From: a virus
Taxonomy: Duplodnaviria > Caudoviricetes
Strand: one strand, 5' to 3'
Length of the DNA stretch: 64,000 bases
IMG/VR virus record: IMGVR_UViG_3300024229_000651
How positions within the stretch are numbered: position 1 is the first letter of the stretch; each line of letters starts with the position of its first letter. The translations under genes were made by a program, and so were the position numbers. The notes below the pieces were generated by a model. The model was not told where the DNA came from. It was given only the letters and a program-made list of their open reading frames with translations, and ran no database searches. Of the stretch, positions 4,348-62,848 are shown piece after piece.

Positions 4348-4695
4348 TTATTGTGGTAATTGGTCTTTTACGGAACTGAGTGCTTGGTCCCCGGCTAAGC
4401 CAGGAACATCAACTTCAGGCTCTTCAGGCTCTTCGCCGTCGAGCATATCGTTATCAATTTTACCTTTGGGAGTAATGGAATCTGCTGTAATACCGCTAAC
4501 AACATCCAATTTGTTCATAGCTGCAATAAGTTCTTCTACACTTAATAAAAACCCATCATCTGCTAAATCGTTTTTGAATTCTTGCGTAGGTATATCACTG
4601 ACATCTTCTCCAGCATACTTTGCAAGCCTGTCGCGGATTGCAACTTCTAGTTCGTCAAAAAATGACTCTAGTAAAAATACTTCCGCGATTCGCAT
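4348..4695 (-). CDS. Acidic hypothetical protein, probable head/internal protein
   Basis: Leader MRIAEVFLLE; directly downstream of 4697..6010. Confidence 0.6.
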   Translation of the reverse strand: MRIAEVFLLESFFDELEVAIRDRLAKYAGEDVSDIPTQEFKNDLADDGFLLSVEELIAAMNKLDVVSGITADSITPKGKIDNDMLDGEEPEEPEVDVPGLAGDQALSSVKDQLPQ

Positions 4696-4696
4696 T

Positions 4697-6010
4697 TTAA
4701 ATCTCTTCTACAGCGTCTACGTCAACTGGTGCTCTACCCATTGGCTCTTCTTCTGGACCTGCAGCTGCAGGAACATTGTCAACTGGTGCATCTAACTCAG
4801 GTTCAGCTAATCCAGCTTGCTGATCCATTCCAGCGCCTGCCATACTGCCTACGCCTGTTAGTGAACCTACCGTAGCATCAATTCCTTCCTTGCCCATTTT
4901 GTTAGCATCAAGTAATGCACCAAGTGATGCTTCCATACTAGACTTCATTTGTGCTGCTTGCTCTGCACCAAATTCAGCTGACATTTGATCTGCGATTGCA
5001 GGAATATCTTCGTTCATCATTCTGCCAATACGCTCGATGTGATCTTGTACGTCATCGGCTAACGCTCGTAGTGCCATTACAACTTCTGCTTGCTCAACTT
5101 CAACTTCTTCACTCAACATACTGCCTATAATGTCGTCGAACATGTTTTCGCTTTCTTCAACAGATTCTGTTTTGCTCATAGCATCTTTAACAGCATCTAC
5201 CGACATGTCAAGTTCTTGTGCAATTTCTTCAACGCTCTTACCATCATTCTTTAGCTTATGCATATATTGAATGCTGTCCAGCAAGTTTCTTTCTGCAATC
5301 TTTTTGCCAAACATCTGGATGCCGTTAACTAATGCTTCTTCGTCTAATCCATTTAAGAAACCAACTACAGCATCTCTGCTCTTGCCAGTTACTTCTGCAA
5401 ATGTATTAACTTTTTCTTCTATAGCGTTATAGCTTTCCATGCTGTTTAACTCTACACCACATTCTTTAGCAAGTTCGCTCAACAGATATTCTGTTAAATC
5501 AGTTTCGGGACTGACAAACTCTGCTAATGCTTCATCCATTACACTATCTTCAGACATGCTGCAAGATTCCATATAATCCTTAGTAGCTTTAAGCACTAGT
5601 GGCATAATAACTTGATCGTCGTATGCATATCTAGAATCTTTTCTAAATCTATTCATACATTCGGAACATGCTTCTTCATCAGTGTAGCCTCCGTCCATAA
5701 GCTCTTGAACAGTTTGCTTGACTTCATTGCACATGCTTTCGTATGCTGGGCTTTCTGCATACATGCCCTCACCTAGCATTACATCAATAACGTCTTTGAC
5801 TCCCAAGTACTTTGCATACTCTGGATCCAATTGGAAACGCTTATTAGTGTTTTTAATGCTAATTATTTTATTTTGTGCCTGCTCTCGCACTTTTTCTAGC
5901 TTGGCTTTTGGATGAAAGCCTTTTACAGAGATACCAAAATTTTCTTTTAGGTATTTGTTTAAATCGCTGACACGTTGTGCGGCAGGTTTGTTGAATGTAG
6001 TTAATTTCAT
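4697..6010 (-). CDS. Acidic helical protein, candidate prohead core/scaffold
   Basis: 437 aa, very E/D-rich with many (I/L)xE sites; late promoter at 6041-6048. Function is inferred. Confidence 0.5.
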   Translation of the reverse strand: MKLTTFNKPAAQRVSDLNKYLKENFGISVKGFHPKAKLEKVREQAQNKIISIKNTNKRFQLDPEYAKYLGVKDVIDVMLGEGMYAESPAYESMCNEVKQTVQELMDGGYTDEEACSECMNRFRKDSRYAYDDQVIMPLVLKATKDYMESCSMSEDSVMDEALAEFVSPETDLTEYLLSELAKECGVELNSMESYNAIEEKVNTFAEVTGKSRDAVVGFLNGLDEEALVNGIQMFGKKIAERNLLDSIQYMHKLKNDGKSVEEIAQELDMSVDAVKDAMSKTESVEESENMFDDIIGSMLSEEVEVEQAEVVMALRALADDVQDHIERIGRMMNEDIPAIADQMSAEFGAEQAAQMKSSMEASLGALLDANKMGKEGIDATVGSLTGVGSMAGAGMDQQAGLAEPELDAPVDNVPAAAGPEEEPMGRAPVDVDAVEEI

Positions 6011-6040
6011 ATCTAGTCCCGAAGTAGATTATATTACAAC

Positions 6041-6048
6041 TATTTATC
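6041..6048 (-). promoter_or_regulatory. Late promoter GATAAATA
   Basis: TATTTATC on the + strand in the intergenic gap. Confidence 0.65.
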
Positions 6049-6066
6049 AAAAAGATTAATTTTTTA

Positions 6067-6516
6067 TCAAGAAAAAATGTGCTTTAATTTTTTAACAAGA
6101 TGTCCCAGACGATGCGTAGAGAGATCGAGCCTAGTTTCTACAATAAAATAGCGCATTTCATCAGATGTTGTAGACATAGTATTTTTATAGAAAAATATAT
6201 CGTTATAATGCTTTTCTAATTCTGATCTATGTTTATGCAAATGTTTTTGTATGTGTGCAATTTTATTAATTACACGGTTTTTATCTGTTCTGTTTAAGCT
6301 GTTTGCACAAGTTTGTGCAAGCTCATGGATAATTATGTTCTTAATAATAGGCTTTTGAGTTTTAGCATCAACAATATCATACATGTCATACATGTTCTTT
6401 GCTGAAAAGAACATAGCCTTTCGAGCAACGTTATTCGATATTAACTCAAGTTGCTTAGATAACTTTTTCTTATCAATATTACGAGAATACTTTGTATTTG
6501 ACTTTGCCATTATCAT
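6067..6516 (-). CDS. Hypothetical protein
   Basis: Co-oriented ORF, 149 aa, basic. Confidence 0.6.
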   Translation of the reverse strand: MIMAKSNTKYSRNIDKKKLSKQLELISNNVARKAMFFSAKNMYDMYDIVDAKTQKPIIKNIIIHELAQTCANSLNRTDKNRVINKIAHIQKHLHKHRSELEKHYNDIFFYKNTMSTTSDEMRYFIVETRLDLSTHRLGHLVKKLKHIFS

Positions 6517-6682
6517 TTACCCTTATTAATACACCACTCATATATAAGTGATTTGCTTGATTATTGTCGCTCGGTGAAAGGTCACACAAATATATACCGC
6601 CTTCGTTCCGTATCTTGTCATATATCTGGAACCCTTTGCTGGACATTACAGTTTGTCCGTGTTTACCTGGTACTACTTTCAT
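6479..6682 (-). CDS. Hypothetical protein
   Basis: 67-aa co-oriented ORF. Confidence 0.55.
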   Translation of the reverse strand: MKVVPGKHGQTVMSSKGFQIYDKIRNEGGIYLCDLSPSDNNQANHLYMSGVLIRVNDNGKVKYKVFS

Positions 6683-6692
6683 ATCTACACCA

Positions 6693-6860
6693 CTACTTAA
6701 TAGATGATTGTACTTTTGGTCCAGGCTTTTTCTTAGGGCCGATCTTTTTAGGCTTCTTAGGTCGTTGCACTACTCTCTGTACATCGTTAGCAATGGACGG
6801 AATTGACGTTGCTACAGCGCCAGCTGTTATTGTTTCACCAATTATATCATGTATTTTCAT
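6693..6860 (-). CDS. Small basic protein with CTS-like leader (not in the ORF track)
   Basis: Translated by hand: MKIHDIIGETITAGAVATSIPSIANDVQRVVQRPKKPKKIGPKKKPGPKVQSSIK*. Late promoter 6 nt upstream of the ATG. Confidence 0.75.
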   Translation of the reverse strand: MKIHDIIGETITAGAVATSIPSIANDVQRVVQRPKKPKKIGPKKKPGPKVQSSIK

Positions 6861-6869
6861 ATGTACTAT

Positions 6870-8189
6870 TTATCTATTGTAGCAACTAAACACGTCTGTG
6901 AACCCGGGGTATATTTCTAACCATGATGAAACATCCTTAATTAGCATAGAATCAATGTGCTCTCGTTTACTAATAAAATTGTTGAAATTATGCTCAGTGA
7001 TTTCAATGTTTTTACTCTGTATATCTTGCCATAATACAGGAGAATCTTTTTTCATCTGTAAAGTTTCTAACTCTGCTAATATCATGTTAATTTTGTCCAT
7101 CACATTGTTTTGCTTGTCAAACATATTTGGATCATTATATAAATGGTCAAACGTTTTATACCCGTTTTTTCTTAAAAATTCAAATGTTCTACATGAACCT
7201 AAAATCATAAACGGTTGTTTCATTATGATAGGTTTATAAATTTTTTCTGTAACGTACACAGTATAGTCTACGAAGGTTTCTGTTATTATGTCGATCTCGC
7301 AGGATTTAAGTTGTTTTATAAAATCTTTATCTTGTGAGATCGACTTCATATGCACTTCTTCTTGTGATCGCCGATCAAGCACTAACGGATAATGATCTTC
7401 TAATGCTTCCAAATAAGATATGCCTTGCAACAACTCCGTTTGTGTTATACGATTTTCTAAATGTTGTTTGCCTAAGTATAGCACAGATTCTGCAAACAGT
7501 TTATTAAAAGGGACTGTAGGTGAACTAATCATACCATCTACATGCAGACCTCGCTGAATTAATCCTCCTAAAAGAAGTGCTCTGTGCGGTCTAGGAGCAT
7601 TATTAAGGCAACTAAACAACAGAGTTTTCTCTACACCATATGGATCAGCATCTTGTACTTTCTGAAACAAGTCTGCCATTGTGTCTTCTTTGTAGTTGTT
7701 AAGAAAAAACACTCTAAAATCATTTTTATATACACTGTTGTTATGTATATCAACAATGTTTTCAGCAGAATTACAATAAAATGTTTTACTTGGGTCTAAT
7801 CCAAAGGTTGTTGTTACCTGTGATATAAAATTAAATATAGAATTATCACAGTGGCCTTCTGCACTATTGTCAAACAATACGATTGGATTATTGCAATCTA
7901 GTATGTATTCGGGTATTATCTGTTTTGCTGCATCAAGTAATCTATTTTCCTCCCACAGTTTATAAATATTATCCGAGCCGATACCATCTAGACTAATAAT
8001 AAACAATACCGGCCTTTTGGACAACTTAGATATTTTATTATAGTGTATCCAGTTATCCGACATAAACTCGCACATACCTAACGCACAGTCTTTGCTAGTT
8101 GCTGGGACATTTTGGAGATCTATAATTTCAGATTTTCCACAGGAGGAAAGGAATGCTCGGAATGGGTTATCGATATCAGCAATAAACAT
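6870..8189 (-). CDS. Glycosyltransferase-like protein
   Basis: FSCLNNAPRPHR and IITET..YVTEKIYKPI..QPF..LG motifs, similar to the GT10-type TEK motif; paralog of 36648..37640. Confidence 0.5.
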   Translation of the reverse strand: MFIADIDNPFRAFLSSCGKSEIIDLQNVPATSKDCALGMCEFMSDNWIHYNKISKLSKRPVLFIISLDGIGSDNIYKLWEENRLLDAAKQIIPEYILDCNNPIVLFDNSAEGHCDNSIFNFISQVTTTFGLDPSKTFYCNSAENIVDIHNNSVYKNDFRVFFLNNYKEDTMADLFQKVQDADPYGVEKTLLFSCLNNAPRPHRALLLGGLIQRGLHVDGMISSPTVPFNKLFAESVLYLGKQHLENRITQTELLQGISYLEALEDHYPLVLDRRSQEEVHMKSISQDKDFIKQLKSCEIDIITETFVDYTVYVTEKIYKPIIMKQPFMILGSCRTFEFLRKNGYKTFDHLYNDPNMFDKQNNVMDKINMILAELETLQMKKDSPVLWQDIQSKNIEITEHNFNNFISKREHIDSMLIKDVSSWLEIYPGFTDVFSCYNR

Positions 8190-8219
8190 GTTTGTTATTT
8201 ACCGGTATAGTAAGTAGTT

Positions 8220-8615
8220 CTATTTAATCTTTGGATTTCGGTAATTTTTTAAAGAATCGACTGCTGTATCAAGCATTTGTAGATAGAAAGGGTGCATTAT
8301 ATTTTCGCCACCAGTTGTGTTCATGGTCTGCAATTTAGACTTCAATCGGCGCCATTGGCCTTTTCTGCCGTCCGGGAAGGTTTGATGAACATGTGCAAGT
8401 ATATCTTGTAATATGATTCCTTTGTATGTATCTTTTGATTGATCTAACTTAGGAAAAAAATCTCTTACAAGCTGTCTATCACTTTCGTTTGTTTTCTTTT
8501 TCCTTTTAGGAAACACACTTGGGTTAGGTCTACGCAACATTTTACTAGCTGTTGCCGTGGAAGTAGCGATGGCGCCGCTGGTAGTAGTTTCTGTAATAAT
8601 ATCCGAAATCTTCAT
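8220..8615 (-). CDS. Hypothetical protein with CTS-like leader
   Basis: True start is probably MKISDIITETTTSGAIAT, 5 nt after the GATAAATA at 8621-8628. N-terminus resembles 6693..6860. Confidence 0.7.
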   Translation of the reverse strand: MKISDIITETTTSGAIATSTATASKMLRRPNPSVFPKRKKKTNESDRQLVRDFFPKLDQSKDTYKGIILQDILAHVHQTFPDGRKGQWRRLKSKLQTMNTTGGENIMHPFYLQMLDTAVDSLKNYRNPKIK

Positions 8616-8616
8616 A

Positions 8617-9204
8617 CTAGTATTTATCTGCAAACTGGTGATTAGCAGCTGCATGCCTGGCTTCGTCATCTCTAACTGCTTTCACCATATCAAAAAGTTT
8701 AGCATCTTTATCAAGTCCATAATAATCGATAGCTAGTTGAGGTGCATCTACATTCCTAACTTGTCTATTTTCTATCATAGTTAAATATGTCGTATAGCTA
8801 AGTACTGCTTCTTCTTCAAAAAATGCAATCATTTTGTGTGCTGTTCGAGGGAAAAGTACAAACATTACAAAATAAAAATTCCAAAATATAAATTGTGCTA
8901 ATAAAATTAGAAATCTTTCAAATATATTAGGTTTTGCAATTTCTATGAAGAACATTAGATGCATGCGTTCATTCTCTGCTTCTGCAAGCAGTTCGCGAAT
9001 CATTGGGCCGTATCCGGTTTGCAGCTGGCGTAAACTTTTTAAATGTATCCACATGCCTGCAACCATCCCCGGTACGCCAGCAATAGTTTCCAATACTACT
9101 GCCCTATGTCCATAGCGTTTTGCAAAAAAGAGATCAGCAAAAAAACGGAAAAATTTTGTCATAAACATAGCCGTCATGTCCGACAGCTTGTGCTGAAATG
9201 TCAT
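8617..9204 (-). CDS. aox: Alternative oxidase (ubiquinol oxidase)
   Basis: LETIAGVPGMV, EAENERMHL, FEEEAVxSY and VRDDEARH di-iron motifs. Confidence 0.95.
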   Translation of the reverse strand: MTFQHKLSDMTAMFMTKFFRFFADLFFAKRYGHRAVVLETIAGVPGMVAGMWIHLKSLRQLQTGYGPMIRELLAEAENERMHLMFFIEIAKPNIFERFLILLAQFIFWNFYFVMFVLFPRTAHKMIAFFEEEAVLSYTTYLTMIENRQVRNVDAPQLAIDYYGLDKDAKLFDMVKAVRDDEARHAAANHQFADKY

Positions 9205-9216
9205 GGGTTGAAGCCT

Positions 9217-9756
9217 CTAGTTGTTTATTCTGATATTCACGACGTCCCAATCAATGATACGCCATATATTACTAAGGTATTTAGCTTTGTCGTGCTGATA
9301 GTCTAATGCCCACGCATGCTCCCACCAATCAATGAGCATTGCTATGTCATTTTTAATTTGGTGGTTAACTATTGTTTTGATATCACCGGATAAACTCATG
9401 TACACCCATCCGCTGCCTTGAATCTTCATTGCTACTTCTTCAAACTGCTCTTTGAAAGTCGCAAAGTCGCCGTATTTGCTATCTATAAGCTCTTTACTTG
9501 CCCCTGCAGGGTTATTACTACTACTTGGTGTTTTTAGCTGTGGGAAGAATACGTTGTGTAAGAATGCACCTGCTTCCATGAACTGTGCATCTCCTTTGCC
9601 TTCATTATATTTTGTAACGTATGCTTTAGCAAGTTTGCCGTAGTGAAAATTGATTGTGTCTTCACTCATTACAGGATCCAAGTCACTCTTGCTGTAAGGT
9701 AACTTTTCTTGCACTAACACTTTTTTATCTTCTGTTAAAAAATCGTGTAGTTTCAT
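9217..9756 (-). CDS. sod: Fe/Mn superoxide dismutase with an N-terminal leader
   Basis: LPY...FHYGK...LHNVFF...GSGW...DWWEHA..LDY; four metal ligands present. Confidence 0.92.
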   Translation of the reverse strand: MKLHDFLTEDKKVLVQEKLPYSKSDLDPVMSEDTINFHYGKLAKAYVTKYNEGKGDAQFMEAGAFLHNVFFPQLKTPSSSNNPAGASKELIDSKYGDFATFKEQFEEVAMKIQGSGWVYMSLSGDIKTIVNHQIKNDIAMLIDWWEHAWALDYQHDKAKYLSNIWRIIDWDVVNIRINN

Positions 9757-9950
9757 TTTTTCTTACCGCCTTTCATATTAGCACACCAGTGATACATTTT
9801 ACCCTTTTCACCACTGTATTTTTTAGCTTTTGCCCGTAAACTACTTACCGAACCTTTGCAACTTGCGCCTGCTTTTTTGACTCTACCTGGTCTGCTCTTG
9901 CCTTTCTTCTTACCGTCAGCAAAGTTTTCTGTAATTTCAACTATTTTCAT
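9753..9950 (-). CDS. Small Lys/Gly-rich basic protein with CTS-like leader
   Basis: MKIVEITENFADGKKKGK...HWCANMKGGKKK; translationally coupled to its neighbours. Confidence 0.75.
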   Translation of the reverse strand: MKIVEITENFADGKKKGKSRPGRVKKAGASCKGSVSSLRAKAKKYSGEKGKMYHWCANMKGGKKK

Positions 9951-12900
9951 GCGTCTGGCTTGAATTCAAACGCAAACTTTCCGCCAATGCGTGAACTGTA
10001 ATAATTCTTGGCGCCGTCTAAGCGAATTTTACCCCGGAAATTAGGTGGATACAACGCTTCCCATCCTGTTACTCTAGCATTGTCGCCTTGTTTACCCATC
10101 TTGCAGTATAACTGAACAATACTGGACTGGTTAAGGAATGCAATAGCACCTGCACTAAATTGAGGTTCTTCGTTAATCATTGCTGCTACTTTTTTAGCCA
10201 GTAACGCAATTAACGCATATCCTACATTGAATCCAGGTATGTCCTGTTTAGGTGTTCCATAGTTAAATAGTTCTTTCGCCGATTTGCTTAATCCATCGTA
10301 ATCAGTTTTTCCTGCTTTAACGTACTCCATGATTTCTAGTTCTAACTTTTTAGGTAATACACCCAACAGTTCTGCTAATCTAAATGGTCCGTCGATTGCA
10401 GTAGATTCTTGTACAATCTTAATTATTTTAACTGTGTATGCATGTGCTTTGACTAATTCTGGTGGTGCTTTATCGATAGCATCTGCAATGTTCTTAGCAC
10501 TTGCTTTTGCACCCTTGCCGCCTTTACTACTGATGCCAACTTCGGTTCCGTCTGGGCCAATGAAAACACTATCAACCAGTGCATAGTTCATTGCTTGCGG
10601 CCAGAATACTCCAAACGTAGACCACTCGGCTCCGCCCATTAAATCTTGTCTAGCATCTTCAGCTTGTCCGCCCACCATGCCGCTCATCAATGCAACTGGT
10701 CCCATGATTTCACCAAAGTAATCTCTTAGTGCCGGTAAGTTCTGTATTTGGCCTTCAAATTCAGGATGTTGCTGTGCTTGGATACTGTGCAAAGCATCTA
10801 ATAGCTGTTGCTGTATTGCGTGTCCCTGGCTGTTATTCGAGACAGTGTTTATTATGTCATCTACGCTTGTATGCTGATTTTCGTTTTTGATTAAGTGCTG
10901 TGGGTCGATACCAAGGTCTAATTTTAATGCGCCAGCTTTTTGTAATTTCCAACCAGTTGGAACTTGATTATTAGCCCATGCTCCCATCATATCTACACGC
11001 TTCTGCTTAAAATATCGACCCCAGTACACTGGCTTATCATTATTACTAGGATCTGTAAGTGTTGCAATACCGAAAGCTAGACTACCGCTGTTTGGAGTGT
11101 TAGTCCACTCAATTTGTGCATTGAGCTGTTGTTCTATATCTGATGCAAAACTTTCACGCTCTGGTGCATCATCGAACTGTGCACGATCCTGTGGGTAAAC
11201 TTCTACACTGCTGAACTCAAGCGTACTGTCCCCTTTCTTAAATTGGTCGCCCACCACTCGTCCCATTAAACCTTTTGCTTCCGCAAGTATGCTCTTAACG
11301 TGAGAGGAACTCCACTCGTTTAATTTTATTTGACTTTGAACTTCTTCAGGTAGTGCTTGAGAGAAATATTTAACTATACCTCTAGCACATGCATCGTCGC
11401 CAGCTTGCGCTCTAAGATCATGAAATGCATCTAGCATTTCAGGTATAGGCATTACTTGGTATGCAAGCATTTGCTTCTTTAAATCACATACTGGAAAATG
11501 GTCTGCCATTAACCCATTAATAATTTCTGCTCTATTAAAATCGTGCACACTCTCAAAATTCAATGCTCGCATCTCACGCTCGAATTCCAAATCGTCTAAT
11601 TTTTTACGAGTGGCTGCTTTTTTAGCATCAAATTTTGCTGGACCATACTTATCCTGGTCTTTATAAGTTTTCCTATTAGCCGATCTCTTAACTGTTTTCT
11701 TTTTACCAGGTAAACCTTTTGTCCATGCTGTGTCTGGTCTACGATTAGGCAATGAAACTTTTTCTACCCGTTGAATACCCAGTTCTTTACTTGTGGGATT
11801 GGCAGGATCTTTGTATTTTCCATCAGCTGATGCTACTTTCCTTTTGGCACCTAGTCTTGTTTGAGCAACAACTTTTTTATTTGTGCCATCCCTATATACG
11901 ACATTATACAGATATTCACCAGTGCGCAATTCTACTTTTTCATCTTCAGGTGAGGCTTTAGAAGTATCTCTGCGAGCTTGTTTTGCAATTGCTTCATCAA
12001 TTTTATTTTTATCAATTTTTTCTAAAATGGCTAGTTGTTCCAATATTGGCAACTTATCAAATTTGTCAAACGGTGTCATTTTACTTTCCTGTACATCAAA
12101 TTTTATATTAAATCTCTGGCTTAGTAATTTACGATGGTCAGTTTTTAAAAAGCTGTGCGGAACGCCGATTGGTTCGCTCTGATATGTAGTACCAGCTGGA
12201 GCAAAGCCATACTTCTTGACAAACGCATCAACAACAGGTTTATATTCCATCTTTTTGGCTTCAAATTCTGCAATATCCTGTTGTCTTTGTCTAATAGAGC
12301 CTTTGAGTCTTTCTACTTTTTCTGGTTCAGCAACTTTAAGACCTTGCTTTATACCGTCGATCAGTCCTTGTTCATGTTCGATATAACGAGTAGCCTCGTC
12401 CACTTCAAAGCGAGCACGTTTAACTTTGTCTAACTCGTCATCGCTAATCACTTTAAAATCTTGTTGACTGATTGTTGCATTACTATCGGGCTTGTTATCG
12501 CCGAATAGGTCACCGAACAGTGCACGATGCTTATCTGTGGGTATTGCTATAACGTGTCCTTTAGGTGCAGTAATAGTGTATGATGCTTCCGGTGCGTTAG
12601 CATCCTGCTTTTTCAACAAGCTGTTTACAGCCGAAGCCATCTTTTCTAGTTTGTTGTGATGATCTCCCGGGAAGTTTTTCACAAACTCTGACTGTTGTAG
12701 TTCAGTCCACAATGCTTTAGGCGTTAAGCTGAAGTCTTTTAACGCTTGTCTAAATGCTGCAATAGCCGCCGATTTAGGTTCAGCCCTATTAGCACCGCTT
12801 GCAACGTCACTGGCTAACATAGCAAAAGCTCGCACAAAGTATTTCTGTGCTTTAATCATTGTTCTACGCCAGTCTTCGTCATCGCCTTCGGCTTCGAACG

Positions 12901-15028
12901 GCATCTCTTGTTGTGGATTAGCGTTCTTTGCACTTTGTGCATCTGCTAATTCCATGTATGCATTGCTCAATGATTCAATAGCATCTGTATAATGTTTTTC
13001 ACTTGCAATACTTTGGAAAGCAGCTAACACTTTATCGTTAATGCTTTCTGGGTCAACCATTGTTTGAGCTCTTTTAACAACATCGCCGCTTACTTCGTCT
13101 TTGCCTGCAATCATTTTAAACAGTGCTTTGATGTAGTCCTTGCGATATGCTTCTTCATCATGCCCGGCTTGCATCACTGCGGCATAACGGATAACTGCTT
13201 TCATCACTTTGTCGCTCATAGTGTGATAATCGTCGCCACCTGCAACACGGAATTCAATAAGTTTATTTTGCTCTACGTTTTTAGCATCTTTAAAGTTGAT
13301 ACTGCTGAACTTGCCATTACTGATGCCGCCTAACAGTATGTCTTCGAGACCAGCAAGGCTCTTTTCATCCTTGATATCGTTTTGTAGATTTTTGATATAC
13401 TTTCGTACTGTTTCTTGTTGACTCTGTGTATAAGTGTTATGCTCTCTGCCAAACTGCTTTAACACATACTTGTCGCCTAACAGCACAGCCATTTTTAGCT
13501 TGTTAGTTTTAGCGTAGTCCGAATCCATCCAACTCATTGTGACATGCAAACCAGTTGAACTGTTTGTTTCCACATTGTTGTTGTTCATGTACTCAAACAA
13601 ACTCTTCATCTCTTTGAGCATTTCTGCTGGGTTGTCATATACAGGTGAAATAATCTCTGCTTTTGCACCTTCGCCTTCGATTGAGGTGTCATCTTCCACA
13701 CGCCAATGGTCATTGTCTACGCCTTGGCCACTGTGATATACGCCCGGACGTACATCGTTGCTCTTACTGTTGTTGCTGGCCCAATCCTCTAGCATACTAG
13801 CTACAGCATCAACACCGCCGCCTTCGCCGCCTTCGTTGTACAAGTAAATGTCCATTTCGCCTAATAGGCTCCACCAACTGCCGCCGTGTTCTCTGCGAAC
13901 CCAATCGTCCATGTCGTATTGATCCATTGCACGTTGCCAGGATTCGTCCCATGCTTCGCCATTGTCGCGGATCTGTTCCTCTAGCCACTCAATAAATTCG
14001 TCTTCTTTGTACATTTCAACATATTCACGAGGCCATGCTTCATCGTCCCAATTGCTGTACTCTTCCAGCTCGTCCTGCATGTCGTCGATTTCTAATCGCT
14101 CCAGTTTGTCTGCCTTGTACTCTTCCACTTCGTCCATGTCAACATGATCGTTTACAAACTCATCTATGTACGCTTCATCTTCTTTGCGTTCGTTGACTAG
14201 CTCTAGGACAACGTCACTCTCTATTTCGTATACAACTTCTTCTTGTAGCCATTCGCGGTATGCTTCTTCCACACTCTCCACTGCACGTGATCCTTCTTGA
14301 TCGTAAATCAAATCACCGACACGGTTCCAATACAGGTCGTCTAGCCAACTGGTGTCGTCCTCGTCACTGCCTTCGCCTAGGTTAGGCCACACAGTTTCCG
14401 CTTCAAAGCCGCACTGTATGTTCGCATTCAGTGCACCTTGTGCAAGCTCTTTGCTGTTGAAGTTGATTTCAAAAATAGGCTCACCTTGTTCGGTCATTTT
14501 AATTTTACGGGTGAGCTTTTTGATCTTTTTTTGCAAACGATCCCGCTTAAAATGAAAATTACTTGTGCTACTTTTAGATAATTTGTCTAACTTGCCTTCA
14601 GTAAACTCTGGATTAGCCACAAACACTTCTTCGTCGGGGTCGTCTATAACTGAATATTCTTTTGTTTTAGGGTTCTGCACTACTACTGCTTCAGGCTTTG
14701 TGCCTTTTCCGATAGGAGATTTTACTACACCTGCTGATTTTCCATCTTTATCAAAGTATTCCATATCTGTTTTTAGTTCGCCTGCTTTAGCATTAATAAA
14801 TTTTGGAGTCTCTTGATCATTTGCTTTAGGAACTTCTAGACCAGGCGTGGTAGTAGGGCTTCCTAAATCAGGTTTGGCTGCTGTTTTACTTGTAGTAGGT
14901 GATTTTGTAGATGCATTTGCTTTTGCACTTGATCCCATGGATTGTTGGGAAGTAGGTGTACTTGCCCCTGGCTTCATACCATACTCCATAAGTAAATGAT
15001 CTATAGTCCTAATATCTGTGAATTTCAT
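9947..15028 (-). CDS. 1693-aa multidomain protein: COOH-NH2 ligase type 2 (amidoligase) domain plus C-terminal PD-(D/E)XK-like domain
   Basis: GFEAE, WRVEDDTSI..AEIISP, TGLHV, KFSSINF and IEFR amidoligase motifs; YFGE..GP / LVDS / ISSK near the C-terminus. Confidence 0.7.
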   Translation of the reverse strand: MKFTDIRTIDHLLMEYGMKPGASTPTSQQSMGSSAKANASTKSPTTSKTAAKPDLGSPTTTPGLEVPKANDQETPKFINAKAGELKTDMEYFDKDGKSAGVVKSPIGKGTKPEAVVVQNPKTKEYSVIDDPDEEVFVANPEFTEGKLDKLSKSSTSNFHFKRDRLQKKIKKLTRKIKMTEQGEPIFEINFNSKELAQGALNANIQCGFEAETVWPNLGEGSDEDDTSWLDDLYWNRVGDLIYDQEGSRAVESVEEAYREWLQEEVVYEIESDVVLELVNERKEDEAYIDEFVNDHVDMDEVEEYKADKLERLEIDDMQDELEEYSNWDDEAWPREYVEMYKEDEFIEWLEEQIRDNGEAWDESWQRAMDQYDMDDWVRREHGGSWWSLLGEMDIYLYNEGGEGGGVDAVASMLEDWASNNSKSNDVRPGVYHSGQGVDNDHWRVEDDTSIEGEGAKAEIISPVYDNPAEMLKEMKSLFEYMNNNNVETNSSTGLHVTMSWMDSDYAKTNKLKMAVLLGDKYVLKQFGREHNTYTQSQQETVRKYIKNLQNDIKDEKSLAGLEDILLGGISNGKFSSINFKDAKNVEQNKLIEFRVAGGDDYHTMSDKVMKAVIRYAAVMQAGHDEEAYRKDYIKALFKMIAGKDEVSGDVVKRAQTMVDPESINDKVLAAFQSIASEKHYTDAIESLSNAYMELADAQSAKNANPQQEMPFEAEGDDEDWRRTMIKAQKYFVRAFAMLASDVASGANRAEPKSAAIAAFRQALKDFSLTPKALWTELQQSEFVKNFPGDHHNKLEKMASAVNSLLKKQDANAPEASYTITAPKGHVIAIPTDKHRALFGDLFGDNKPDSNATISQQDFKVISDDELDKVKRARFEVDEATRYIEHEQGLIDGIKQGLKVAEPEKVERLKGSIRQRQQDIAEFEAKKMEYKPVVDAFVKKYGFAPAGTTYQSEPIGVPHSFLKTDHRKLLSQRFNIKFDVQESKMTPFDKFDKLPILEQLAILEKIDKNKIDEAIAKQARRDTSKASPEDEKVELRTGEYLYNVVYRDGTNKKVVAQTRLGAKRKVASADGKYKDPANPTSKELGIQRVEKVSLPNRRPDTAWTKGLPGKKKTVKRSANRKTYKDQDKYGPAKFDAKKAATRKKLDDLEFEREMRALNFESVHDFNRAEIINGLMADHFPVCDLKKQMLAYQVMPIPEMLDAFHDLRAQAGDDACARGIVKYFSQALPEEVQSQIKLNEWSSSHVKSILAEAKGLMGRVVGDQFKKGDSTLEFSSVEVYPQDRAQFDDAPERESFASDIEQQLNAQIEWTNTPNSGSLAFGIATLTDPSNNDKPVYWGRYFKQKRVDMMGAWANNQVPTGWKLQKAGALKLDLGIDPQHLIKNENQHTSVDDIINTVSNNSQGHAIQQQLLDALHSIQAQQHPEFEGQIQNLPALRDYFGEIMGPVALMSGMVGGQAEDARQDLMGGAEWSTFGVFWPQAMNYALVDSVFIGPDGTEVGISSKGGKGAKASAKNIADAIDKAPPELVKAHAYTVKIIKIVQESTAIDGPFRLAELLGVLPKKLELEIMEYVKAGKTDYDGLSKSAKELFNYGTPKQDIPGFNVGYALIALLAKKVAAMINEEPQFSAGAIAFLNQSSIVQLYCKMGKQGDNARVTGWEALYPPNFRGKIRLDGAKNYYSSRIGGKFAFEFKPDA

Positions 15029-15029
15029 C

Positions 15030-15314
15030 TTATCGCCTATTTAAAGATTGTACTCTTCTGCTCTGAGGATTCAATCGTTTTGTTCGTCTAGCCTTTCTAG
15101 CCATTCTACCACCCATCTTTGCTTTTGTACGCTTGAGTGTTAGACGCTTTTTCATATTAATAGGCTTAGAGCATTGGCTAGGATTACTAACTACTCGGCC
15201 TTTTCGTCTACCAGATGTGCAACGAACTGCACGTTTTACAGTTTTCCCGGATCGACGCCATACCATACGGGTCTCCAGTAAACTATCTTCCTGTAACAGT
15301 TCGTCTAAACGCAA
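15030..15314 (-). CDS. Highly basic Arg/Lys-rich protein
   Basis: TTG start immediately after the upstream stop gives MRLDELLQEDSLLETRMVWRRSGK...; the remainder is strongly basic. Confidence 0.7.
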   Translation of the reverse strand: MRLDELLQEDSLLETRMVWRRSGKTVKRAVRCTSGRRKGRVVSNPSQCSKPINMKKRLTLKRTKAKMGGRMARKARRTKRLNPQSRRVQSLNRR

Positions 15315-15315
15315 T

Positions 15316-15564
15316 TTATATACCGCCAAACATATTAAGTAATAAACCAACTAATATTGCTACCATAGTAGTAAACGTAGTGCCTACTATAGCCACAAGC
15401 CAGTTCTCAATTTTATTTAGGCGCACTTTTGTATCTTGCTTGAACTCTCTAACTTCTGTTGTGATACTTTCAATACGCAACATATCTGCAATAATGTGTG
15501 CTTCTAAATTATTACTCTCAGAATACTGAGTTTGTTGCTTTCGTTGTTGGTCGTAATCGTTCAT
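15316..15564 (-). CDS. Small membrane protein (coiled coil plus C-terminal TM helix; holin/XhlA-like architecture)
   Basis: C-terminal hydrophobic run WLVAIVGTTFTTMVAILVGLLL. Confidence 0.55.
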   Translation of the reverse strand: MNDYDQQRKQQTQYSESNNLEAHIIADMLRIESITTEVREFKQDTKVRLNKIENWLVAIVGTTFTTMVAILVGLLLNMFGGI

Positions 15565-15963
15565 TTATAATAAGTCCTGTTTTGTAAATTCCATATTAAT
15601 AGAATTCTTAGTGTCGATGACACCCGAGTTTAAAACAATATCGTGCAACTCATCTATCAAGGTTTGTACAGTGTGTGCACCAGGCATTTCTGTAGCAAAT
15701 TTAAAGATGAATCCCGAACCAGTTATAGAAGAAGCACCATAGTTCTCTAGTAAATTTTGTCCTGTGCCGTTTAAATAAACTGGGTTGTTCATAACCGTAG
15801 GCATAGCCCGTAATCCAATCACTTGAACAACACTTTCAAAATCTTTTTGACTACTATCAGTGTAACTACCGGTAACACGAATATTCAAATTAGTATACAA
15901 TGTGAAAAATTCAATATTGCCTGTTAGCACTTCCAGCGAGCCCATTGCTCCGCGTCTAATCAT
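15565..15963 (-). CDS. Hypothetical protein (probable virion protein)
   Basis: SD GGAG; late promoter at 15982-15989. Confidence 0.65.
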   Translation of the reverse strand: MIRRGAMGSLEVLTGNIEFFTLYTNLNIRVTGSYTDSSQKDFESVVQVIGLRAMPTVMNNPVYLNGTGQNLLENYGASSITGSGFIFKFATEMPGAHTVQTLIDELHDIVLNSGVIDTKNSINMEFTKQDLL

Positions 15964-16009
15964 GTTTATCTCCTGTACGTGTATTTATCACGATACCGAT
16001 TATACAGCC

Positions 16010-16038
16010 AAAAAAAATCCCCAACTAAGTTGAGGATC
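16010..16038 (-). terminator. Intrinsic terminator
   Basis: Minus strand AUCCUCAAC-UUA-GUUGGGGAU followed by a U7+ tract. Confidence 0.75.
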
Positions 16039-16060
16039 TTTAATTTATAAATTTTTAAAT

Positions 16061-16303
16061 TTATACGTTGTCGAAAGTTGCTACTACAGTTACACCTGTT
16101 ACTGCTGGTGTTGGGCCGCCTTGTACAACAAGGTGACTGCCGTCTGTTGTGCCTTCAACTGCTGCGATTGTGCCGCCTTCAACCATAATTTCTGCGCATG
16201 CAGCTTCTACGGATACTGTTGCTGTTGCTACAGATACGATAAAAGTCTTAGGGCCTAAACCGTTGGACTGACGTACTGCTGCATTTGGATTAGCTTGTGC
16301 CAT
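16061..16303 (-). CDS. Small Ala/Val/Thr-rich protein (candidate decoration/structural protein)
   Basis: Strong SD AGGAG, own late promoter CATAAATA at 16357-16364 and own terminator, i.e. a monocistronic high-expression layout. Confidence 0.65.
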   Translation of the reverse strand: MAQANPNAAVRQSNGLGPKTFIVSVATATVSVEAACAEIMVEGGTIAAVEGTTDGSHLVVQGGPTPAVTGVTVVATFDNV

Positions 16304-16396
16304 TTTATATCTCCTAAACTATTTTCATGCTTAATTAAATAAGCTCTGGTTACTGTTATTTATGCAAAAGAAAAGATTTAGTGTTGTTATAGATTT

Positions 16397-16900
16397 TTAC
16401 TTTCTAGGCTTACGAATATTGCTTTTCATAAGTTTATCTGCAACATTAACAAAATCTTTGCTAATATCTGCGCCTAATTCAGCTGAATCAACGTTGAATA
16501 CATCCCTAGCAACTTGTTTAATCTTGTCTTTTGCTGCTTTGTACTTGGCGCCGGGTGTTGTTTTCTTATCCTGATAATACTGATTACCCCATTTCTTTCC
16601 TGATTTATCGCTAACTCTGTCAACTGTAGTGCTCGTAGTTGGCTCTGGTCTGGTCATAGGAGTTCGTTTTATTTTTTGGGCAGGTTCTTCCTTTGTATCA
16701 GGGGATTGCTTTTGTTTTCTGCGTTCGATGTCCTGAGCCATGCCAATAGCGTCTAATGCACTTATACCTTTATTAGACACTATACGTTTAGCTCTGGATA
16801 TAACATTATTACTTAACGAAGATCCGTGCTGTGCTTGTATTTGAGCTATCTGGTCAACGGTTAAATTTTCGTCTTCTAGAATTATATCGCTGATTTTCAT
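16397..16900 (-). CDS. Hypothetical protein with CTS-like leader
   Basis: Begins MKISDIILED. Confidence 0.7.
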   Translation of the reverse strand: MKISDIILEDENLTVDQIAQIQAQHGSSLSNNVISRAKRIVSNKGISALDAIGMAQDIERRKQKQSPDTKEEPAQKIKRTPMTRPEPTTSTTVDRVSDKSGKKWGNQYYQDKKTTPGAKYKAAKDKIKQVARDVFNVDSAELGADISKDFVNVADKLMKSNIRKPRK

Positions 16901-17679
16901 TACTGCTTTTTCCTTCCGCTAGCCCAGTATCCGGCAATTGCCCCTATACCTGCGCCAGTAGTGCTAGATATTTTGTTTTTAGACACTTTAGGTACAACTT
17001 TACTGCCTACGTATGCTCCAGCTGCTGTTGCTGCAGCTCTTTTTAACTTACTTGGCTCATTGCTAACGGGCGTATCTTTGTAGGCTCGTTCTCTTTTCAT
17101 AGAAATCAAATGATTGAATATTTCTGTAGTTTGTGCTTTTACTGAACGCAAAGACTGTAGAATTTTTGCAACCACATATTGCTTCTGGCTGTATTTTAAA
17201 TTATCCCAGTCTACAACTAAGCGTCTTAGTTGTTTGTATAATGCGTTCTTGATACTTAACTGAGATTCAAGTCTAATTAGAAATGCAGACATTTCACTTT
17301 TTGTAATATCTGTGGTTGCTACTGTACGCATCATTCTGTAATGTCTGCGATTATCAAAACTTAAACTAGCAAGCGACTTTTCAACACTGCCTTTAAACCT
17401 TAAACTTTTGTAGTCTGGGTTCTTAATTGCAAACCCCAACATATATAAATCTGTTGCTGCTGTTCTATAAGCAGCATAAGGTCCGTATTGTGATGTTTTT
17501 TGTGCATAGGCTTTTGCATAATCTCGTTGATCGCCATCTTGCGAGAACATTAATACTGCTAGTGTTTCTAGAAAAAATACGTCTGCAATATTTTGCGCAG
17601 ACATACGGCGAAATCCATCTGTGTTTCTATACAGTCTGCTTTCGCATAAATCCTCAGAATTAACCAGTAAGAGATCCAT
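16900..17679 (-). CDS. Hypothetical protein (probable internal head protein)
   Basis: LCE^SRLYR near the N-terminus; C-terminal Gly/Ala hydrophobic segment. Confidence 0.6.
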   Translation of the reverse strand: MDLLLVNSEDLCESRLYRNTDGFRRMSAQNIADVFFLETLAVLMFSQDGDQRDYAKAYAQKTSQYGPYAAYRTAATDLYMLGFAIKNPDYKSLRFKGSVEKSLASLSFDNRRHYRMMRTVATTDITKSEMSAFLIRLESQLSIKNALYKQLRRLVVDWDNLKYSQKQYVVAKILQSLRSVKAQTTEIFNHLISMKRERAYKDTPVSNEPSKLKRAAATAAGAYVGSKVVPKVSKNKISSTTGAGIGAIAGYWASGRKKQ

Positions 17680-18974
17680 TATGCTCCAGGCTTCCCGGAG
17701 CCGAAATTCAATCTGCTAAATTCTAATCTATCAACTAACTTTAACGCATTGCCAATCCTGTCAACTGCTACGAAACCTTCCTCGCCAGTAACTTCAAATC
17801 CGTCACCTGTTTCTACAAAAGTTCCTATTTGCCTGATTTGTTCTAACTTTTTAACTATACGAATTTTTGCTTCGATCAACTTTAAATATAAATCGTATAC
17901 TGCAACAATTCCAGGAATGTGCTCTTTGATAAACTTAACACCGCCTACCATTTTTTCAGTTTTAGCATCTTTAGTTTTTTGCATAGAAACTTTGTCTATT
18001 TCTTTCTTCATAAAGTTAACATATTTTTCAACAAAGCCTTGCGCAAATTTAGTAGGCTCATCGAAGTGGCCTTGACGCACTTGATTATTTGCATGAGCTT
18101 TTAGCTGTTGCAAAAAGTCTTTACCGATCAAGTCGTTGCCCTTCTCTAGCCAAGAAAATGTTTCAGAATCAACACTCTTTAGATATGATGCTGCATCTTG
18201 TATTGCTTGCATTGTAGCAGAGCTTTCCTGTGCAGTCATTGTAACAGTGCCGCTAAGATCTTTAATTATCGCATCTCTGTGCCAAACACCATTGGTCTGT
18301 CCTAACACACTGCTGTCGAAGCCAAATTTTGCAGTTGTATCAGCTAGTGTTGGGCCGCCTACGTATTCTGTATGCCAAACTATACCAAAGCCTGCTGAAA
18401 GAATTTGTTTTCCTAAATCACTATCAGCTGGAACAGCATATGTGATAGTGTTGGGCTTGAATACAATATGTTCTGTATTGTCTATAACAACTTTACGTAA
18501 ATCTTCTTGTCCTGCGAATAGCATGTCGCCTTGCGCTACAGTGTCCCAATTTAATCCTTGCAAATATTTTAATGCTAATTTTAATTTAGTACGCAATCCG
18601 CTCGAATCTTTACCCTTGGGATCTGCATGATTAACATCAATATCTTTGTTTGTAAAATTTATTTTAGGTGTTTGCGCAAAAACGCCCTTAGTTCCTACAA
18701 AAAACTTACCTGTTGCAGGATCTTTACCTGCTATAATAGCAGGAGCACCATCCCATTTTGTTGTCATACTGATCGGTGCTTTTGAATTACCTTCCAGCAT
18801 ATCGTGTAAACTGTACAAATATTCTACTGCTTCTTTAGCGCCGGCATACCCTTTATTAAATATGTTGTCTTCTAGGTGCTCAAGGTGCGTGTTTTTACCA
18901 TCCTTGCTTTCTGTAATTACAGATTCAGATAATATGTTAACAACTTTAGGCTTTGATATTTCTATAAACTTCAT
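17679..18974 (-). CDS. Covalent nucleotidyltransferase-fold (RNA/DNA ligase-like) protein
   Basis: TTKWDGAP (motif I KxDG), QGDMLF (III), EEGFV (IV), LKLV (V). Confidence 0.6.
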   Translation of the reverse strand: MKFIEISKPKVVNILSESVITESKDGKNTHLEHLEDNIFNKGYAGAKEAVEYLYSLHDMLEGNSKAPISMTTKWDGAPAIIAGKDPATGKFFVGTKGVFAQTPKINFTNKDIDVNHADPKGKDSSGLRTKLKLALKYLQGLNWDTVAQGDMLFAGQEDLRKVVIDNTEHIVFKPNTITYAVPADSDLGKQILSAGFGIVWHTEYVGGPTLADTTAKFGFDSSVLGQTNGVWHRDAIIKDLSGTVTMTAQESSATMQAIQDAASYLKSVDSETFSWLEKGNDLIGKDFLQQLKAHANNQVRQGHFDEPTKFAQGFVEKYVNFMKKEIDKVSMQKTKDAKTEKMVGGVKFIKEHIPGIVAVYDLYLKLIEAKIRIVKKLEQIRQIGTFVETGDGFEVTGEEGFVAVDRIGNALKLVDRLEFSRLNFGSGKPGA

Positions 18975-61438: not shown

Positions 61439-62848
61439 ATGGATTATTGGTACGACGAACAACTAAGAAGATATCTTTTGCAGTTTATGCGAATCTTCGG
61501 AGGCTTTCAGGTTAAGGAAGGCAAGCGAGACGGTGTCGAGTACTATAATAAAGTGCCTGTTAGATATGCCGATATGAATCGAATGGTTGCTCACATACTA
61601 AAGAAGGGCAGCGAGAACATGGTAAACAGTACACCGTTTATATCTTGTAGTATTTCGTCATTACTTATCGCCCGGGATCGAGCGGCTGATCCGTTACTAG
61701 TTGACAAAGTGCAAATTGCAGAAAGACAGTATGACGATGATGCTGGGGAATATGTGGGGCAAGACGGCGAAACTAAATTTCCAGGAAATCTTTATACTAC
61801 AGATAGATACATGCCTGTTCCGTATAATTTAACCATGAACATCGACATATGGAGTGGCAACACTGATCAAAAATTACAATTACTCGAGCAAATATTAATA
61901 CTGTTTAACCCAAGCCTAGTACTTCAATCAAGTACTAACCCGTTAGACTGGACTAGTTTGTTCGAAGTCGAGTTAACAGACATTCAGTGGAGTAATAGAA
62001 GTATGCCAGCTGGTGTCGATGAGACAATCGACATTGCGACTTTAACATTCACTCTACCTATTTGGCTTAATCCGCCTGCGAAAGTTAAACGACAAAAAAT
62101 TATTAACACAATCGTTACGAATATAACAGACACTAGCAGTATCAACGACTTGGGCTATGATGAGGACATTTATGACTTTTTCAGAACCTTAGACAAGCAA
62201 TTTCAATTACATACTATTAGCCCTAACAACTATCGTCTAGAGGTTGTAGGCTCAGAAGCAACATTATATAAAGATAACGGAACAATATTAGCAAATTGGA
62301 ATGATTTATTAGAAGTTTTAAGCCCGCAAGGAAGTTCGGGAACAGCAGATACGCAAAATGTTGACCTGGACGACATACCATTAACGCCTGGCAGCACCAT
62401 TCAATTGAATTTATCTAATAATGTATACGACACAGATCAACAAATAACAGGATCTGTGGTCCGAAACACTATTGACTCAACAAAATTAATATTTACACTT
62501 GACCAAGACACATTACCTGCTAATACACTGACTAATTTAACAAGAATTGTCGACCCAGTTGCTAGTTTTCCAGGTGACGGTAACTTAGCTGCTGTAGCAA
62601 CTGGACAAAGATACTTGTTAACTAACGAAATACAAGGAAATGTCTGGGGTATTACTGCATATACCAATGACATTATCGAATATAACGGTGCTGCATGGGA
62701 TGTAGTATTTGACTCTCGTATGCAATTAGATAATACGCACTATATAGAAAACACATACACAAACAAACAATACAAATGGGAAGATGCACAGTGGACGAGC
62801 TCGCACGAGGGAATTTACAACCCGGGATACTGGATCCTAAATGTATAA
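61439..62848 (+). CDS. Tail sheath stabiliser/terminator (T4 gp15-like) with C-terminal extension
   Basis: YWYDEQLRRYLLQF, VPVRY, MPVPYNL, LEQILILFNPS, IDIATLTF..PIWLNPPAKV. Confidence 0.88.
   Translation: MDYWYDEQLRRYLLQFMRIFGGFQVKEGKRDGVEYYNKVPVRYADMNRMVAHILKKGSENMVNSTPFISCSISSLLIARDRAADPLLVDKVQIAERQYDDDAGEYVGQDGETKFPGNLYTTDRYMPVPYNLTMNIDIWSGNTDQKLQLLEQILILFNPSLVLQSSTNPLDWTSLFEVELTDIQWSNRSMPAGVDETIDIATLTFTLPIWLNPPAKVKRQKIINTIVTNITDTSSINDLGYDEDIYDFFRTLDKQFQLHTISPNNYRLEVVGSEATLYKDNGTILANWNDLLEVLSPQGSSGTADTQNVDLDDIPLTPGSTIQLNLSNNVYDTDQQITGSVVRNTIDSTKLIFTLDQDTLPANTLTNLTRIVDPVASFPGDGNLAAVATGQRYLLTNEIQGNVWGITAYTNDIIEYNGAAWDVVFDSRMQLDNTHYIENTYTNKQYKWEDAQWTSSHEGIYNPGYWILNV

Follow-up and report, generated by a model that had tools for sequence, protein, structure and literature searches.

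Internal proteins of phage T4 carry the capsid-targeting sequence (CTS) MKTYQEFIAE. In the internal protein IPIII, the first ten residues are enough for packaging, processing depends on residues 8 and 10, and an aspartyl residue at position 10 prevents cutting (PMC9026906). Alt is one of the enzymes packaged into the T4 head, and fusion to the CTS has also brought foreign nucleases into it (PMC9026906). Polyvalent proteins are likewise large and combine disparate enzyme domains; they are predicted to reach the host together with the DNA, and processing into separate units has been proposed for them, too (Iyer et al. 2017, PMC5512222). Here, we analyzed a stretch of 64,000 nucleotides (nt), hereafter the window, from the IMG/VR phage record IMGVR_UViG_3300024229_000651 (Duplodnaviria; Caudoviricetes). 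The open reading frame (ORF) at positions 9947-15028 on the minus strand starts with ATG and encodes, in a single frame, a putative precursor of 1693 amino acids (aa) and 190 kDa joining an amidoligase to a nuclease-like module. By analogy with T4, we suggest that its product is a multi-cargo precursor targeted to the capsid of a marine T4-like jumbo myophage, and that this precursor would be packed, cut and injected with the DNA. We assign this reading a probability of roughly 60%. The delivery route is known, and what is new is the precursor architecture together with the cargo families. Full-text searches on phage polyvalent proteins, amidoligases, capsid targeting and prohead-protease polyproteins returned no account of such a precursor.

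Several features of the gene are shared with the T4 system. Like the T4 internal proteins and Alt, the protein starts with a short leader of the type M-K-x-x-(D/E/Q)-(F/I)...(L/I)-x-E, and this leader (MKFTDIRTIDHLLME, aa 1-15, positions 14984-15028 on the minus strand, as for all segments of the gene given below) resembles the T4 CTS in its sequence. The leader is conserved across the family, whose N-termini follow the pattern MKFxD[IV]RT..[LI][LI]xE-YG (MKFTDIRTIDHLLME-YG here), with [LIVFM]xE at the leader-end column in 49 of 53 sequences. The word ending the leader here, LME-15, was absent from the protease sites listed in the original prediction, a note made from the sequence without database searches. 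As in T4, a gp21-family protease is encoded in the same genome. The prohead protease gene at 272216-272659 (-) of the genome record matches PF03420 (Peptidase_S77) with 85.5 bits against a cut-off of 27; it lies outside the window, with about 72 kb between it and the cargo cluster. The grouping of leader-bearing genes in a plastic locus is a further likeness to T4. A strict leader pattern, applied to all frames of the 340-kb genome that start with Met and have 60 aa or more, matched six ORFs, all on the minus strand and all inside positions 4348-18974 of the window (4348-4695, 8220-8615, 9217-9756, 9947-15028, 16397-16900 and 17679-18974). Six random positions in 340 kb would all fall inside such a 15-kb stretch with a probability of about 1e-6. 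Enzymes also belong to the T4 cargo, Alt being an ADP-ribosyltransferase, and the charge of a basic piece of about 20 kDa within the chain is reminiscent of the basic T4 internal proteins. The cargo types themselves (amidoligase, PD-(D/E)xK fold and an adjacent superoxide dismutase, SOD) are not known for T4.

The other genes of the cluster and of a related contig carry comparable leaders. The SOD-like ORF 9217-9756 (-), just downstream of the 1693-aa gene, starts with MKLHDFLTE; neither this ORF nor ORF 8617-9204 (-, 195 aa) matched a PHROG family at E <= 0.001. The 149-aa ORF 8220-8669 (-) has its probable start at an internal Met at 8615, giving the leader MKISDIITE just behind the late-promoter-like word GATAAATA. 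ORF 17679-18974 (-) encodes 431 aa with the leader MKFIEISKPKVVNILSE and matches PHROG 455 (unknown function, E 1.8e-91). On a related 289-kb contig, a stand-alone amidoligase lies amid genes starting with MRAHEFITE (two genes), MKIKDIILE and MRAKEFITE. A ferritin-family gene at 16744-17187 (+) of the same contig is located inside the leader cluster, like the SOD gene here, and starts with MLADDLKVLL, without a typical leader.

Whereas T4 cargo consists of single-module proteins of 8-76 kDa, several unrelated modules are chained here in one precursor of 190 kDa that keeps internal sites. The leader is followed by a segment rich in S/T/P/A/K with low complexity and a small uncharacterised part (aa 16-187, 14468-14983; 18.7 kDa, isoelectric point (pI) 9.3), for which a Pfam search gave no family match. 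The amidoligase module covers aa 188-981 (12086-14467; 90.7 kDa, pI 4.6), is preceded by PIFE-187 and ends in DVQE-981. Behind a conserved E-S junction follows a basic segment (aa 982-1159, 11552-12085; 25% K+R, pI 9.85), then a helical adaptor (aa 1160-1238, 11315-11551), with helices in an AlphaFold2 (AF2) model, that ends in L-N-E-1238. A 12-aa spacer (aa 1239-1250, WSSSHVKSILAE, 11279-11314), flanked by two conserved L-x-E sites, separates the adaptor from the nuclease-like module (aa 1251-1693, 9950-11278; 48.4 kDa), which starts with AKGLMGR.

That these segments are separable units is indicated by stand-alone relatives, which bear out the original prediction that the segments exist as separate genes. 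Both kinds of stand-alone module carry a T4-CTS-like leader of the form M-R/K-x-x-D/E-F...L/I-x-E, for example M-R-x-x-(D/E)-F-I-x-E. Stand-alone nuclease-like proteins start with leaders such as MRAKDFIVE, MRAREFITE or MKIRELLSE and continue directly with [SA]-[KR]-G-[LI]-x-x-R. Most of these leaders have Glu at position 8-17, with L/I/V at P3, the hydrophobic position of the word, in 76/80 and S/A/G at P1', directly after the Glu, in 72/80. Fused nuclease-like modules keep the same word before their start (SILAE-AKGLMGR, E1250 here), with L/I/V at P3 in 72/78. Stand-alone amidoligase modules of 650-800 aa cover the equivalent of aa 176-980 and start with a leader plus [LIV]FE plus [IV]NFN type of sequence (MRLNEFRTPVFE-INFN, MRAKDFTPLFE-INFN, MRLSELLLE-LNFN). 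The corresponding junction of the 1693-aa protein reads PIFE-187-INFN, and P3 of this word is L/I/V in all 29 N-terminal copies and I/L/V/M in all 143 internal copies. At their other end, stand-alone amidoligases stop at ...YNIAFVPK (equivalent to about aa 978-981), and fused ones go on with x-x-E-S (DVQE-S here). The leaders of the stand-alone modules thus end exactly at the module starts of the fusion, E187 and E1250.

The junction in front of the C-terminal module is kept even where the module itself is not. The C-module has been exchanged among relatives of the 1693-aa protein, and the final ~530 aa show the highest conservation in some relatives and are missing or swapped in others. The helical adaptor is common to many relatives, including ones with other C-terminal cargo, and always ends in [LIV]-x-E. 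E1238 of the LNE word is invariant in the C-domain alignment, and a second [LIV]-x-E follows 5-12 residues on. Such tandem sites are also kept before different cargo (INLSE-WSKQHVTKLINE-YTDL and VNISE-SVLSE-YNDL) and are therefore part of the junction, not of the nuclease fold. Pfam searches with the variable parts of ten relatives, in the middle and at the C-terminus, identified DUF5661 in one only. Two relatives of 2028 and 2235 aa contain two tandem amidoligase modules per chain and a 15-aa leader ending in LFE before the first copy; the larger one also has DUF5661.

Cleavage after hydrophobic-x-Glu words is argued from the coincidence of these words with leader ends and module ends in the sequences, and several observations weigh against it. 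The word [LI]xE is not enriched in the 1693-aa protein, with 22 sites against 16.8 expected from composition, and an enrichment was rejected. It is the conservation of certain hydrophobic-x-Glu sites at module boundaries that goes beyond chance. The highly conserved [LIVFM]xE words at E473 and E592 lie inside the catalytic core of the amidoligase, therefore a conserved word alone does not mark a cleavage site. Ile at P1' of E187 and Trp at P1' of E1238 are unlike the S/A/G of the E1250-type junction in this family. At E1159, the NFE site of the original prediction, P3 is a non-canonical Asn in this clade and V/I/M in relatives. Cleavage and ejection are, moreover, drawn by analogy. Of the protease sites proposed to bound the segments, E187, E1238 and E1250 proved to be conserved hydrophobic-x-Glu words; FTE-144 (conserved in 25/46) was rejected and the P3 residue speaks against NFE-1159. 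The proposed VQE site corresponds to aa 981. Likely cleavage sites, as judged from the sequences, are E15, E187, E1238 and E1250 as the best-supported candidates, along with E981 and E1159. Domain identities, active-site conservation, separate modules, conserved junctions, the protease gene and the clustering of leader genes are directly supported.

The same weaknesses would be accommodated if the protein were packaged, lost its leader alone and were ejected whole as a 190-kDa polyvalent multi-enzyme, with the junction words serving as linker or fold elements. We consider this unlikely, though it is the best of the alternatives. Polyvalent proteins that travel at full length are documented (N4 virion RNA polymerase, ArdC and TraC1; PMC5512222), and both the unusual P1' residues at E187 and E1238 and the chance-level count of [LI]xE would fit an intact chain. 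Such a chain does not, however, explain why the leader-ending Glu word is kept at internal junctions in 72/78 and 143/143 fused copies or why tandem sites persist before unrelated cargo. The encoded gp21-type protease would act in trans and also argues against an intact chain. Polyvalent proteins differ from the 1693-aa protein in that processing typically falls to an embedded zincin-like metallopeptidase and in their LPD, DarA, ART or helicase hallmarks. In the 1693-aa protein, no zincin-like peptidase and none of these hallmark domains matched in Pfam at E <= 1, and one relative has a weak LPD3 match (E 0.003). An embedded peptidase is not needed because a trans-acting gp21-type protease is encoded. 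A text search of Iyer et al. 2017 (PMC5512222) found no amidoligase domain among polyvalent proteins.

The first enzymatic module, aa 188-660 (13049-14467), is an Amidoligase_2 or COOH-NH2 ligase type 2 domain as identified from its sequence. PF12224 (Amidoligase_2) matches with 24.3 bits for the whole protein and 26.9 bits for aa 188-660, above the Pfam gathering cut-off of 22 bits, and PHROG 7469 ("amidoligase enzyme") matches as well. PF12224 is also matched by 31 of 53 aligned family members (best E 1.8e-10), and viral clusters with PF12224 make up 98 of the 100 nearest named clusters in the ESM-Atlas. Fifteen residues are invariant among 53 sequences down to 24% identity: G207, E209, E211, Y431, D447, E458, S461, P462, G493, H495, S499, R528, E592, F593 and R594. 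These form the GxExE, E..SP, GLH and ExR words expected of a glutamine-synthetase-type ligase, whose residues would, by analogy with that fold, be metal and ATP ligands. The motifs quoted in the original prediction stand where it placed them, both in the amidoligase (GFEAE, aa 207-211, nt ~14410; AEIISP, aa 457-462; TGLHV, aa 492-496, nt ~13555; IEFR, aa 591-594, nt ~13258) and in the C-terminal part (YFGEIMGP, aa 1437-1444; LVDS, 1484-1487; ISSK, 1499-1502), and the amidoligase identity is upheld by the profile score and the invariant residues.

The catalytic domain has unusual features compared to other Amidoligase_2 proteins, namely an acidic Trp-rich insert of about 215 aa, a helical tail of about 320 aa, and a capsid-targeting-type leader and site. 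The Pfam alignment comprises only profile positions 45-204 of 245, at aa 438-585; a contiguous domain spanning the whole profile was not found. The GFEAE strand with the N-terminal GxExE is cut off from the rest by the acidic insert at aa 215-430 (13739-14386). The insert has 32% D+E, 12 Trp and a pI of 4.05 and sits between PF12224 positions ~44 and 45. Composition and profile position thus agree with the proposed split of the amidoligase by an acidic W/D/E insertion of ~200 aa. An insert of similar length is present in all 69 family members examined and constitutes a family feature in the catalytic domain; it could be a lid or contact the capsid core just as well as mimic DNA. The helical sequence of ~320 aa after the catalytic region has no family assignment. 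A profile search of PDB sequences with the amidoligase alignment produced chance-level matches only and no solved relative.

Evidence from virions is available for a relative of the amidoligase. Megablast against 50,697 phage records found no relative of the ORF at the DNA level, and tblastn against phage records matched the amidoligase part alone, in Agrobacterium phage Atu_ph07 and in RsoM2USA. The Atu_ph07 protein gp196 (AUZ94978.1; 500 aa, 57,931 Da) shares 29% identity over aa 413-646 (E 7e-16). Like the 1693-aa protein, gp196 has an acidic insert, though a shorter one, and a CTS-like leader (MRWQDISSKKLTE) ending in LTE; unlike it, gp196 stands alone without a fused nuclease-like module. 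Its gene is two genes from the portal gene. Tandem mass spectrometry of purified virions detected the product of gene 196 (57.94 kDa) with 14 unique peptides and 30.2% coverage (Attai et al. 2018, Table S5, PMC6102473). AUZ94978.1 is gene 196 of that table, and a homologous amidoligase is thus present in Atu_ph07 virions. The virion data for RsoM2USA, which cover the most abundant bands only, do not mention ORF26.

The virion data also bear on a second alternative, by which the protein would be a cytoplasmic bifunctional enzyme outside the virion, for example an amidoligase in nucleobase or cell-wall modification joined to a nuclease, with the N-terminus serving otherwise. Such a role would agree with phage amidoligases being tied to peptidoglycan peptide remodelling and modification cassettes (PMC5498523) and co-occurring with thymidine hypermodification genes (PMC8989533). 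It would also agree with the location of the examined stand-alone nuclease-like genes amid auxiliary, not head, genes, which is a further point against packaging. However, the PHROG and window scan around the gene saw no glutamine amidotransferase, ATP-grasp or hydroxymethyluracil-kinase neighbours, and the gene neighbourhood backs neither peptidoglycan remodelling nor thymidine hypermodification. The restriction of the T4-CTS-like leader to one gene cluster and the homologous amidoligase in Atu_ph07 virions render a purely cytoplasmic enzyme improbable.

Some stand-alone nuclease-like genes have a cyanophage-style auxiliary neighbourhood. The gene directly follows genes for heme oxygenase and ferredoxin-dependent bilin reductase, with HSP20, ClpS, HSP70/Cpn60 and ribosomal S21 genes near. 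This arrangement recurs on contigs from three samples, representing two sequence clusters of the protein.

The C-terminal module belongs to a large family without annotation. An exhaustive HMMER search with aa 1240-1693 retrieved 352 representative clusters, and most of the 150 clusters listed among these are stand-alone proteins of ~430-560 aa. Pfam and PHROGs searches of the C-domain and nine stand-alone relatives returned no family. Among 105 sequences aligned over the core, aa 1405-1693 (9950-10816), with 21-81% identity to the query, the sole invariant columns are E1440 (codon 10709-10711), D1486 (10571-10573) and K1502 (10523-10525), and S1487 and S1500 are at least 90% conserved. AF2 modelled the core from this alignment with a predicted local distance difference test score of 94.9 and a predicted template modelling score of 0.86. 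In model numbering, helix 24-44 is followed by strands 69-71, 83-86 and 92-98, helix 107-116 and then more strands. E1440 sits midway along helix 24-44 (helix 1), D1486 directly before strand 83-86 (the start of strand 2) and S1500-x-K1502, within the word S-S-K, in strand 92-98 (strand 3), after which a helix follows. The model thus has the alpha-beta-beta-beta-alpha-beta core of the classical PD-(D/E)xK arrangement, in a short version with a helical insertion of ~120 aa.

Structural searches point to the same fold. In the VIA search of the AF2 model against all representative structures, the best matches were MspI (Z 5.7, 162 aligned residues, root-mean-square deviation (rmsd) 7.4), I-Ssp6803I (Z 5.6, 95 residues, rmsd 4.3), SwaI (Z 4.7, 138 residues, rmsd 4.6), EcoRV (Z 4.6, and 4.6-5.1 over searches, 133 residues, rmsd 4.5), NlaIV (Z 4.6, 136 residues, rmsd 4.8), SEN15 (Z 4.4, 98 residues, rmsd 4.4) and HhaI (Z 4.2, 148 residues, rmsd 5.1). 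Lower ranks include HinP1I, DrdV, Hjc, HsdR, HincII, FAN1/VRR-NUC, McrC, DpnI and lambda exonuclease. Of the 50 best VIA matches, about 30 belong to the PD-(D/E)xK superfamily, and these include the first seven. A structural re-check of the candidates proposed by Foldseek itself returned the same nuclease families. The ESM Atlas lists Endonuc-EcoRV, PDDEXK_5 and Mrr_cat clusters below the viral clusters of the family itself, and AlphaFold DB clusters include weak "Restriction endonuclease" and "HaeIII family" entries. Because four libraries agree and three residues are invariant, the modelled C-terminal fold is very probably PD-(D/E)xK. The restriction-endonuclease-like domain of the original prediction hence holds up in the model, at modest Z scores.

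The closer assignment of that note to Cfr10I/NgoMIV-type nucleases finds no support. Membership in the Cfr10I/NgoMIV/Bse634I group was rejected given that these enzymes are missing from the VIA and Foldseek lists and that the invariant Glu is on helix 1, 46 residues before the Asp, and thus upstream and not downstream of SxK. Like MspI, HinP1I and EcoRV, the module has the helix-1 Glu, the Asp at the start of strand 2 and x-K in strand 3. The middle acidic residue is Asn in MspI and Gln in HinP1I, and a non-acidic residue, Ser, also replaces it here. The nearer analogy for the active site may thus be MspI/HinP1I. Unlike MspI, HinP1I and EcoRV, the module lacks sequence similarity to these enzymes, has the helical insertion and an N-terminal beta-barrel, is phage-carried with a capsid-type leader and has no methyltransferase partner seen beside the gene. 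The small beta-barrel subdomain (aa ~1252-1365, 10934-11275) shows a weak resemblance to EF-P domain I and to KOW-like and CarD barrels, with VIA Z of 3.8-4.2 to EF-P, EfpL, CarD and IF5A.

Some findings count against a packaged nuclease. All structural scores are modest (Z <= 5.7) without a statistically clear solved match, and Foldseek against the PDB returned nothing at E <= 0.001 for both AF2 models. A profile search of PDB sequences with the C-domain alignment gave chance-level matches only. The second acidic residue of the classical D...(D/E)xK motif is Ser1500 here. A packaged DNase would also endanger the DNA of the phage itself, and a genome search for a gene of the ThyA/dCMP-hydroxymethylase family (PF00303) that might mark the DNA had no match. 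A search for TET/JBP (PF12851) had no match either; its control was silent too, making this search uninformative. The phage DNA might be spared through ATP and Mg dependence, through specificity for a sequence or structure, or because the substrate is RNA.

Remote structural matches to the nuclease-like core occur in phages S-PM2 and Atu_ph07. S-PM2p143 of Synechococcus phage S-PM2 (14801-16561 (+), 586 aa, hypothetical) matches in a BFVD Foldseek search with E 1.7e-4 and a template modelling score of 0.52 and has the words FFEIL, LIDY and ISVKSK in the same order; no link between S-PM2p143 and virion data could be made. A 370-aa Atu_ph07 protein shows a similar structural match (E 7e-5).

A structural core, scaffold or inner-body protein with inactive relics of enzyme domains would suit the large size, the long low-complexity and charged stretches and the "virion structural protein" PHROG genes nearby, but is highly improbable, as the invariance of all catalytic-type amidoligase residues in 53 sequences and of the E/D/K triad in 105 sequences argues for selection on activity.

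For the capsid-targeted precursor, we infer packaging of the 1693-aa protein, internal cleavage, ejection and both activities with their targets. The precursor would be made late and enter the prohead core through its T4-CTS-like leader. The gp21-type prohead protease would then cut after Glu at the kept hydrophobic-x-Glu sites, with I188, S982, S1160, W1239 and A1251 as predicted mature N-termini. The expected products are an acidic amidoligase of ~91 kDa, a basic piece of ~20 kDa, a helical adaptor of ~9 kDa and a PD-(D/E)xK-fold protein of ~48 kDa, which would remain inside the head and pass into the host along with the DNA. Once there, the ATP-dependent amidoligase might link a carboxylate on a target, from either host or phage, with an amine or amino acid. 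Because it needs ATP, the ligase would stay idle inside the capsid and become active in the host. The protein with the nuclease fold, which has an E-D-(S)xK site, might cut host or competitor nucleic acid.

The genomic context is that of a T4-core jumbo myophage. The source genome is a 339,794-bp IMG/VR phage record with a CheckV completeness of 91%. Nearly all genes are on the minus strand. Neighbour genes encode a tail sheath, the large terminase (TerL), UvsX-like and gp32-like proteins, a DnaB-like helicase and a primase, and PHROG "virion structural protein" matches occur near the ORF. The tail sheath at 50334-53120 (-) is unusually long (928 aa; PHROG 10581, E 3e-234), and a second sheath-related gene is located at 61439-62848 (+). 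Late-promoter words of the NATAAATA type (GATAAATA, CATAAATA) lie upstream of 8220-8615, 4697-6010, 15565-15963 and 16061-16303. The ORF at 9947-15028 has only TTTAAATA, 10 nt upstream, and may be transcribed by read-through from the promoter of 15565-15963; this promoter pattern is no more than suggestive. Relatives of the gene were found in marine metagenomes (Tara, JGI, ENA) on contigs of up to 329 kb.

A broader reading, which we regard as tentative, is that marine T4-like jumbo phages share a plug-and-play cargo cassette in which a leader, an amidoligase and an adaptor with tandem protease sites at its end carry nearly any enzyme, which would be packed with them and released by the prohead protease before injection. 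The injected amidoligase would covalently tag a host target by ATP-dependent amide ligation, and the nuclease family, with its 352 unannotated representative clusters, would likewise be injected, to act as a DNase or RNase within seconds of the start of infection. The capsid-targeted precursor by itself, if correct, would account for the amidoligase in the Atu_ph07 virion. A large unannotated phage family would gain a probable role as an injected effector and a probable fold. In that case, the T4 CTS/gp21 paradigm would extend from small single proteins to long multi-enzyme precursors with fixed stoichiometry. The conserved leader and junction may also offer a ready-made natural scheme by which large phage heads could be filled with foreign proteins.

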